Sequence record: OM982646
Direction: 5' to 3' (one strand)
DNA from: Escherichia phage ST4
Length of the DNA: 64,000 nucleotides
Part shown: positions 27,294 to 27,434 of the stretch, one piece after another
Layout: each line of letters starts with the position of its first letter
Numbering within the stretch: position 1 is the stretch's first letter
The notes under the pieces: model-generated
Told to the model about the DNA's origin: nothing
What the model saw: the letters and a program-made list of their open reading frames with translations, nothing else
Databases searched by the model: none
Made by a program: the position numbers and the translations under genes

Positions 27294-27331
27294 GGTTAAT
27301 TCCTCTTCTAAGATAGCTCTATTGAGATAGC

Positions 27332-27375
27332 TTTACTTTCTAGGGACTCTTCGCCTAGAGCCCCTAGAAAGTAGA
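27332..27375 (-). promoter_or_regulatory. long near-perfect stem-loop in 5' leader
   Basis: CTTTCTAGGG (27336-27345) pairs with CCCTAGAAAG (27362-27371), extended by flanking A-T/G-T pairs and an inner CTCT/AGAG stem; about 18 bp of stem in total. Confidence 0.4.
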
Positions 27376-27405
27376 ACTTAGCTTATCGCATAGTTAAAAA
27401 TAAAA

Positions 27406-27425
27406 GGACTACCCGAAGGTAGTCC
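27406..27425 (-). terminator. intrinsic terminator hairpin
   Basis: 8-bp stem GGACTACC/GGTAGTCC, CGAA loop, followed on minus-strand transcript by UUUUAUUUUU; right after stop at 27435. Confidence 0.6.
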
Positions 27426-27434
27426 AGTTGTTGA

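Follow-up and report, generated by a model that had tools for sequence, protein, structure and literature searches.

A single-copy intercistronic hairpin with an invariant apex and co-varying arms downstream of gp2 in phages of the N4 group

We analysed a 64,000-nucleotide stretch of DNA from Escherichia phage ST4 (sequence record OM982646; the whole stretch is referred to below as the window), in which a long hairpin occupies the 141-bp gap between two genes at positions 27294-27434. The window derives from a G7C-like phage of the N4 group (Schitoviridae, Enquatrovirinae, Gamaleyavirus), and the approximately 2 kb around the gap were 90-95% identical to phages PD205, Bas96, Bp4, PhAPEC7 and G7C in a sequence search. 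According to the list of open reading frames (ORFs), the genes around the gap are all encoded on the minus strand. The protein encoded upstream shares 72-80% amino acid identity with gp2 of N4 and other phages and matches phrog_4099; its gene is named gp2 or 'N4 gp2-like' in the PhAPEC7 and G7C records. In N4, gp2 is a single-stranded DNA-binding cofactor of N4 RNA polymerase II (PMC4496689). The gene on the other side of the gap, which encodes a hydrophobic protein of 62 amino acids, is the first of a variable gene cluster behind gp2.

Read in the direction of transcription, from 27434 to 27294, the gap contains the gp2 terminator, an AT-rich block, the long hairpin, and a tandem repeat of 14 nucleotides (nt) with a Shine-Dalgarno sequence, after which the next gene begins (Table 1). 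A terminator scan showed that the hairpin at 27425-27406 satisfies the definition of an intrinsic terminator; it is annotated as a terminator in PhAPEC7 and is conserved in N4 and all relatives. An earlier annotation made from the letters alone (the sequence-only reading) had recognized this terminator, which is real, but had placed it after the long hairpin. As a minus-strand feature that belongs to gp2 it stands upstream of the hairpin in transcription, and the order of parts assumed at the time is the reverse of the transcribed one. The long hairpin begins about 28 nt past the gp2 terminator and ends roughly 25-30 nt ahead of the ribosome-binding site of the next gene. Two copies of AGATAGCT, which the same reading had described as preceding the hairpin, are indeed present as direct repeats on the plus strand (27311-27318 and 27325-27332), and on the transcript they come after it. 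They form part of the 14-nt tandem duplication, whose units at 27303-27316 and 27317-27330 are 79% identical. Both the AGATAGCT and the 14-nt repeats are restricted to the closest relatives of the window (type A, defined below) and do not form part of the conserved element.

The hairpin itself is formed by an inverted repeat (27329-27350 and 27357-27378) with 22-nt arms that are 86% complementary and a 6-nt spacer; within it, CTTTCTAGGG (27336-27345) is complementary to CCCTAGAAAG (27362-27371) on the plus strand. In the minus-strand RNA, 17 contiguous pairs, one of them a G.U, join 27373-27357 to 27350-27334 beneath the loop AGGCGA, and beyond this helix follow a 1x1 mismatch and four further pairs (27378-27375 with 27332-27329). 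The G+C content of the segment is 44%. Stability was computed in a sliding 60-nt folding scan of both strands over the 64 kb, in which the hairpin proved to be the most stable fold in the window, at -31.4 kcal/mol against a mean of -10.6 (standard deviation 3.9). The RNA of the entire 141-nt gap folded at -49.4 kcal/mol (z = -5.1), and none of 200 shuffled sequences was as stable, bearing out the long stem-loop that the sequence-only reading had drawn at 27332-27375. When folded as DNA, the two strands gave -13.5 and -15.2 kcal/mol (z -4.2 and -5.0). The duplex is a non-chance feature of this gap.

Table 1. Positions of the features in the gap, of its flanking genes and of the canonical virion RNA polymerase (vRNAP) promoters
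Feature	Position	Strand	Remarks
Upstream gene, N4 gp2 homolog	27435..27911	-	stop codon 27437-27435; ORF list
gp2 intrinsic terminator	27396..27425 (hairpin 27425-27406)	-	8-bp stem GGACUACC-UUCG-GGUAGUCC, then U-run UUUUAUUUUU
Conserved AT-rich block TTTTATTTTTAACTATGCGATAAGCTAAG	27377..27405	-	between terminator and hairpin; sequence comparison
Two-codon mini-ORF ATG-CGA-TAA (ATGCGATAA)	27391-27383	-	inside the AT-rich block
Hairpin 5' (left) arm in sense RNA	27357..27378	-	carries four derived substitutions (27367, 27366, 27360, 27358)
Apex: loop AGGCGA (27356-27351) and invariant core GGCGAAGAG (27355-27347)	27347..27356	-	core consensus GRCGAAGRG
Hairpin 3' (right) arm	27329..27350	-	includes conserved CTAGAAAG (consensus CTAAA, 5 nt past CGAAG)
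Tandem 14-nt repeat CTATCTCAATAGAG / CTATCTTAGAAGAG	27303..27330	-	second unit enters Shine-Dalgarno GAGG (27305-27302)
Downstream gene, 62-amino-acid hydrophobic protein	27105..27293	-	phrog_13158, E = 8e-33; start codon at 27293
Canonical vRNAP hairpin promoters	29037-29025, 28199-28187, 24471-24457	-	then TTAT/ATT/TAA and GG

The regions downstream of gp2 from 14 viral contigs, 27 metagenome contigs, 15 GenBank phages and N4 were compared in an ungapped alignment anchored on the invariant CGAAG. Every Enquatrovirinae genome examined, among them Gamaleyavirus, Kaypoctavirus and Moovirus phages, carries a single related element in this position. An invariant apex is formed by GRCGAAGRG and, 5 nt further on (4 nt in type B), a CTAAA-like sequence; the most constrained part of the element is this apex and not the duplex, and it had been overlooked by the sequence-only reading. 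The arms fall into five types: A (the window, Bas96), B (IME11, St11Ph5, PhAPEC5/7), C (L012), D (KP8) and E (Moo19, KKP 3715). Between types the middle segments of the arms vary in sequence, yet stay complementary. Taken in its best register, each of the five types has 14-18 Watson-Crick pairs and 1-5 G.U pairs in 22 ladder positions. Given these counts, the stem length of about two helical turns is itself conserved in four of five lineages. For a typical member of the family the folding energy is -14 to -23 kcal/mol, compared with -31 in the window. The core pattern occurs once in the window and once in each relative, G7C alone having two copies, which flank an HNH gene. Neither the window nor the first 12 kb of N4 yielded a second copy in a search with an nhmmer profile of the apex and right arm, and covariance model R1 returned exactly one sense-strand match per genome and no second copy. 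The presence of a single copy per genome argues against a general class of promoter.

Covariation in relatives had been set beforehand as a check. RNAalifold returned no structure from an ungapped MAFFT alignment because the pairing register is shifted by one position between stem types; a covariance-model alignment was likewise ungapped. Because of the register shift, we assessed covariation by a fixed-register count, by the per-type ladders given above and by folding chimeric arms. In the chimeric-arm folding, in which left and right arms are combined within and between types, cognate combinations folded at -14 to -31 kcal/mol and cross-type combinations mostly at -5 to -12. The fixed-register count was conducted on an ungapped alignment of 20 distinct sequences (A3) with 500 shuffles. 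Paired cells amounted to 74.3% versus 70.0% in the shuffles, the covariation score was 0.197 versus 0.131, and 26 cells had changed on both sides where 15.7 were expected; none of the 500 shuffles reached the observed value for any of the three. Among seven registers, the unslid one (slide 0) was the best. Compensatory exchanges include GGGG:CCCU (AGGGG/UCCCU) in types A and C, UCC:GGG in the KP8 type and GUAUC:GGUAC in type B. These data revealed that the arms have co-evolved, and about 20-22 ladder positions remain paired. Folding of the sense strand is favoured over that of the antisense strand by 4-8 kcal/mol in types A and B, through G.U pairs, and the preference for the RNA sense strand is real but moderate.

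The near-perfect pairing on which the sequence-only reading had remarked is explained by substitutions derived in the window. Compared with Bas96, its closest relative, the window differs at 28 positions in 761 nt, and six of these differences lie within 14 nt at 27354-27367. The four that affect the stem are confined to the left arm, where they replace U.G or C.A by C-G or U-A; the right arm shows no difference from Bas96, and 27332-27350 is identical across the type-A variants. At 27367, 27366 and 27360 the window carries bases unlike those of all five type-A relatives, and the change at 27358 is common to L023 and L026. The near-perfect stem is, from this comparison, a recent, derived state. 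Intramolecular template switching within a quasi-palindrome yields clustered substitutions in one arm that match the other arm, and the pattern of four changes would be consistent with such an event or with very strong selection for pairing. Quasi-palindrome correction resembles the present case in its clustered one-arm substitutions; it differs in that it would explain the perfection of the window copy and not the existence of the element. An exact 14-nt direct repeat (sense TTCTACTTTCTAGG) was also observed, by which 27376-27363 is repeated at 27263-27250, in codons 11-15 of the downstream gene, where the closest relatives match at 12 of the 14 positions. The arm-perfecting event also created this identity; the coding copy did not serve as template for the changes at 27360 and 27358, because both lie outside the repeat. 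The right arm could alternatively pair with this coding copy, 113 nt downstream, and would then enclose the ribosome-binding site.

In several relatives a gene for an HNH homing endonuclease of 164 amino acids is inserted exactly at the element, where the window has none. In G7C (L006 1811-2351) the HNH gene interrupts the left arm and is accompanied by a left arm, core and ACTAAGAGG of its own, with two cores flanking the gene. In L011/L029, L028 and NAN33P5 (L055), a homologous HNH gene starts 21 nt past CGAAG and the right arm is replaced. The first gene behind the element also differs among phages, the different genes being joined near a conserved TTAGAAGA(A)GGA ribosome-binding region. 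These arrangements make the element a favoured site of entry for mobile genes and also a joint for recombination. Such a role fits a sequence that cannot change freely, and leaves the reason for the constraint unexplained.

We propose that the hairpin is a cis-acting RNA processing or stability element, of the size of an RNase III substrate, in the leader of the gene cluster behind gp2, and we assign this reading a probability of roughly 0.4. Substrates of RNase III contain a coaxial double-helical stem of about two turns (approximately 20 bp) in which small irregularities are tolerated, and the 17 bp, 1x1 mismatch and 4 bp of the window fit this length. The element also lies between cistrons on the sense strand, both flanking genes and the best fold being on the minus strand, so that it would be transcribed through. 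Any transcript reaching the downstream genes would carry the hairpin, whether produced by vRNAP reading through the gp2 terminator or initiated by RNA polymerase II within the AT-rich block. The two-turn duplex would then act as a processing or stability determinant, either by host RNase III cleavage, in analogy to the intercistronic sites of T7 early mRNA, or by simple protection of an RNA end. With either option the downstream cistrons would be uncoupled from the very abundant gp2 message and their expression level would be set. The invariant GRCGAAGRG-N5-CTAAA suggests that a sequence-specific partner may also read the tip of the hairpin. So understood, the element belongs to the known class of conserved intercistronic phage stem-loops.

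The RNase III sites of T7 early mRNA (R0.3-R1.3) and of the lambda N leader provide the closest comparison for this proposal. Like the present element, they are irregular duplexes of about two turns that lie between cistrons in the sense strand of a polycistronic early or middle region and stand a short distance ahead of a ribosome-binding site; the relatives of the window element keep their pairing with 1x1 mismatches. The T7 sites differ in having an internal loop, whereas the window has a perfect 17-bp helix and an invariant apex, and cleavage is here only predicted. The earlier suggestion that a duplex of this kind is typical of a processing or regulatory structure for the downstream gene holds in part: the hairpin is intergenic, in the transcribed orientation, and its pairing is kept in five stem variants. 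Several observations weigh against the proposal. RNase III requires no conserved loop, and recognition by this enzyme alone does not account for the invariant apex. Conservation is highest in the apex, which is kept where the long stem has been lost, that is, in N4, in the distant relative L042 and in the HNH-bearing genomes. In N4 only 10 Watson-Crick and 2 G.U pairs are found in 21 positions, and the absence of the long stem there is a further difference from the T7 sites. Because the apex is so conserved and persists without the stem, the primary function may lie in the sequence and not in the duplex. Moreover, antisense and sense strands fold equally in types C, D and E, and the asymmetry of G.U over A.C is only moderate, so that the element could still be a hairpin or cruciform in DNA.

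A number of known classes were compared with the element. Promoters of the N4 vRNAP (P1-P3) share with it the phage family, the genome region and a conserved centre between paired inverted repeats that vary freely; they consist of a 5-7-bp hairpin with a 3-nt G-R-A loop and the heptamer GC-GRA-GC on the template strand, with A4 and then +1C (PMC4496689). On the coding strand, GCTYCGC marks P1, P2 and P3 in N4. This class was rejected: there is no heptamer in 27294-27434, the loop has 6 nt (5-6 nt in the family), the stem has 17+4 bp (about 21 bp), and the best fold is on the sense strand. The middle promoters of phage LUZ7 are hairpins approximately 15 nt upstream of the start site (PMC9163698) and, like the element, precede post-early genes in an N4-like phage. 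They are, however, G+C-rich, with stems of at least 6 bp, loops of 3-4 nt and a start at G, and occur several times per genome, whereas the element is present once, is much longer and has A+T-rich outer arms; it was rejected as a LUZ7-type RNA polymerase II promoter on account of its single copy, its 5-6-nt loop and its A+T-rich outer stem. In some types the loop could be 3 nt if a C:G pair closes it. No sigma-70 promoter was found in the gap when -35 and -10 hexamers, a spacing of 16-18 nt, A at -11 and T at -7 were demanded; a TTGAnn-N16-nACTAA sequence in N4 and type B lacks the T at -7 and is not kept in type A. The long hairpin is not a terminator either, as no U-run is present and AAAGCUAUCUC comes next. 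In Rfam, no family reached its gathering threshold, the best match being mir-28 with 26.6 bits against a gathering score of 64, and only generic hairpin matches of the miRNA-precursor kind, far short of their thresholds, were obtained. T4-type 'promoter-early stem-loop' (PeSL) cassettes, which together with free-standing homing-endonuclease insertion sites form another point of reference, likewise border a hyperplastic cluster of small genes, with varying genes behind the stem-loop and an inserted HNH gene, in one case with the element duplicated. The present element is not a dispersed repeat of that kind, since it occurs once per genome unless an HNH gene is present (two copies only in G7C, flanking that gene), and a promoter is here only a candidate. 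Counts of CTAAGT, ACTAAAG and TTTAAC were uninformative because most of the matches lie inside genes. The literature consulted contained neither a transcript map of N4 or the G7C-like coliphages nor a description of the element, and annotated records contained no such description.

Even with these classes set aside, the element might act in DNA, as a promoter or polymerase-loading site, for example for N4 RNA polymerase II with gp2, although we consider this unlikely. GRCGAAGRG-N5-CTAAA would then be the recognition and initiation sequence, and the inverted repeat would aid melting or hairpin extrusion, as at vRNAP or LUZ7 promoters. Such a function would account for an apex that, with its fixed 5-nt spacing to CTAAA, outlives the stem, and for the equal folding of the antisense strand in types C, D and E. 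Genes downstream of a strong terminator need a promoter, and the start codons of three different HNH cassettes and of L042 lie 17-21 nt past CGAAG, as if expression signals ended there. The sequence (A/C)CTAAAG resembles the -5..+1 region of T3-type promoters. A start 15-18 nt from the hairpin centre, by analogy with the hairpins of LUZ7 (PMC9163698), would possibly fall on the conserved CTAAA(G). Against this, middle promoters are present in multiple copies, and the 64 kb of the window and 12 kb of N4 each contain the element just once. The N4 middle promoter has been described as a minimal AT-rich element at -7..+2 (PMC4496689), and this fits the TTTTATTTTTAAC block beside the terminator better than the G+C-containing apex. 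Every defining feature of a vRNAP promoter failed, and three canonical GCTCCGC hairpins lie elsewhere; the lack of a sigma-70 match in the gap points the same way.

An RNA operator would reconcile the variable, co-varying stem with the invariant apex, in that a phage or host protein would bind the apex and control translation, stability or read-through downstream, with the duplex as a scaffold, as lambda boxB does with N or as in the translational operators of T4. The single copy at one operon boundary and the sense-strand G.U pairs agree with this. On the other side, an operator needs far less than the stem of about 21 bp that is maintained here, and in L028 and in N4-like arrangements the apex persists although a stem is lacking altogether. 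Reading the relatives by eye, without a formal search, showed no boxA-like sequence of the lambda type, and we know of no candidate binding protein. We hold the operator reading to be rather improbable. The insertions described above raise the question whether the locus is mainly an evolutionary hot spot, that is, a homing site of HNH genes and recombination joint at the border of gp2 and the mosaic cluster, with a palindrome that templated mutation maintains or perfects. HNH genes lie exactly at the element in G7C (with its two flanking cores), L011/L029, L028 and NAN33P5, the same element is followed by different genes in different phages, its core resembles the TTAGAAGA(A)GGA ribosome-binding region and could provide short homology for cassette exchange, and the clustered arm-perfecting substitutions fit template switching. 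Homing endonucleases nevertheless exploit sites that are conserved for other reasons, and neither the invariance of the apex nor the compensatory pairing of five stem variants in phages devoid of HNH genes would be explained; as a full account it seems to us quite unlikely. Still less probable, in our judgement, is a functionless, decaying remnant of a translation-initiation region, palindromic by chance, in which the left arm is a U-rich, enhancer-like TTAACTTT followed by a Shine-Dalgarno-like GAAGGAG. The left arm does resemble TTAACTTT and Shine-Dalgarno regions elsewhere in the window (e.g. 19203-19236), and the L042 core GACGAAGGAG, 11 nt ahead of the next start codon, may be its real ribosome-binding site. 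A remnant would, however, not keep an invariant apex and co-varying arms across four genera, nor would one expect it to outrank every other local fold of the genome in stability. We also considered, with low expectation, that the element could be a previously undescribed single-copy recognition element of the Enquatrovirinae that a phage protein reads as structured nucleic acid, either as a hairpin promoter or loading site by which gp2 and RNA polymerase II (or the virion polymerase) would activate the genes beyond the gp2 terminator or as an origin-like site; it would then be essential enough for HNH homing endonucleases to specialise on it.

Phages of the N4 type serve as the textbook example of transcription from hairpins in DNA, and expression behind the gp2 terminator, as well as the choice of start sites by RNA polymerase II, is poorly described. 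A compensated hairpin in single copy, at a fixed position and with an invariant tip, provides a concrete experimental handle on these questions, and it marks the exact entry site of homing endonuclease genes. If the hairpin proves to be an RNase III or stability hairpin only, as in the processing reading that we favour, it would be an ordinary feature of polycistronic phage mRNA, with a value mainly for annotation and for the engineering of therapeutic G7C-like phages. Should the phage transcription machinery turn out to recognize the apex, the interest would be greater.

A second long hairpin was observed on the minus strand at 8229-8188, between the rIIB and gp35 homologs, with the sequence TTCAAATGCCCTCACTT-GTAATA-AAGTGAGGGTAAATTTGAA. 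It is the second most stable 60-nt fold in the window, has a 6-nt loop and is not followed by a U-run. This hairpin ends in the ribosome-binding site GAAGAGG, the AGG of which takes part in the outermost pairs. It is kept in G7C (where it is annotated merely as 'stem_loop'), Moo19, Klebsiella phage Kpn16-P2 and N4, that is, in four genera, with compensatory changes such as CCUCAG/CUGAGG versus CUCCAG/CUGGAG. Long sense-strand hairpins between cistrons are therefore a recurring, selected feature of these genomes, which favours a role at the level of RNA.

The AT-rich block between the terminator and the hairpin follows the pattern TTTAAC-N-CGATAA-N-CTAAG, which is kept out to Pseudomonas phage Arace01; it is possibly a candidate middle promoter of N4 RNA polymerase II or a 5' leader. 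Middle promoters of N4 may have TTTA as a consensus where transcription starts. No conserved small ORF was found within the element, the only one being the two-codon ATGCGATAA, which the window shares with G7C, phi G17 and some metagenomic relatives; in most of the others AGACGATAA, without an ATG, takes its place.

In the window, GCTYCGC occurs on the minus strand at 29034, 28196, 24467 and 35427, the first three in hairpins upstream of early genes (Table 1). The hairpins of these three promoters are CATGC-TCC-GCATG, GACGC-TCC-GCGTC and AGCTGC-TCC-GCAGCT, each followed by a T/A-rich tract and GG. Directly upstream of gp2 (27939-27927, minus strand), the counterpart of N4 P2 is degenerate (GATGC-TCC-TCGTC), its heptamer being broken and its stem mismatched; for this reason gp2 may require the promoter at 28199-28187. 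The virion RNA polymerase gene itself, 95% identical to that of PhAPEC7, lies at about 54400-64000 on the plus strand and extends past the end of the window. Numerous short minus-strand ORFs called at 54.7-64 kb, inside this gene, are a filtering artefact. The assembly is circularly permuted, and the genome has its left end, with promoter P1, within the window near 29100-29200.

Between the gp1 terminator and the next ribosome-binding site, a 9-bp palindrome AAGTAGATA-GT-TATCTACTT is found at 28602-28583 (minus strand); at the corresponding site behind gp1, N4 has a different palindrome, GATAGTT-CAAT-AACTATC. The motif CTACTTT is common to the 28602-28583 site and the left arm of the main hairpin. 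In the N4 intergenic regions (L045) and the gaps of the window, most of the early and middle terminator hairpins are followed by T-runs that end in A (TTTTA, TTTTTA).

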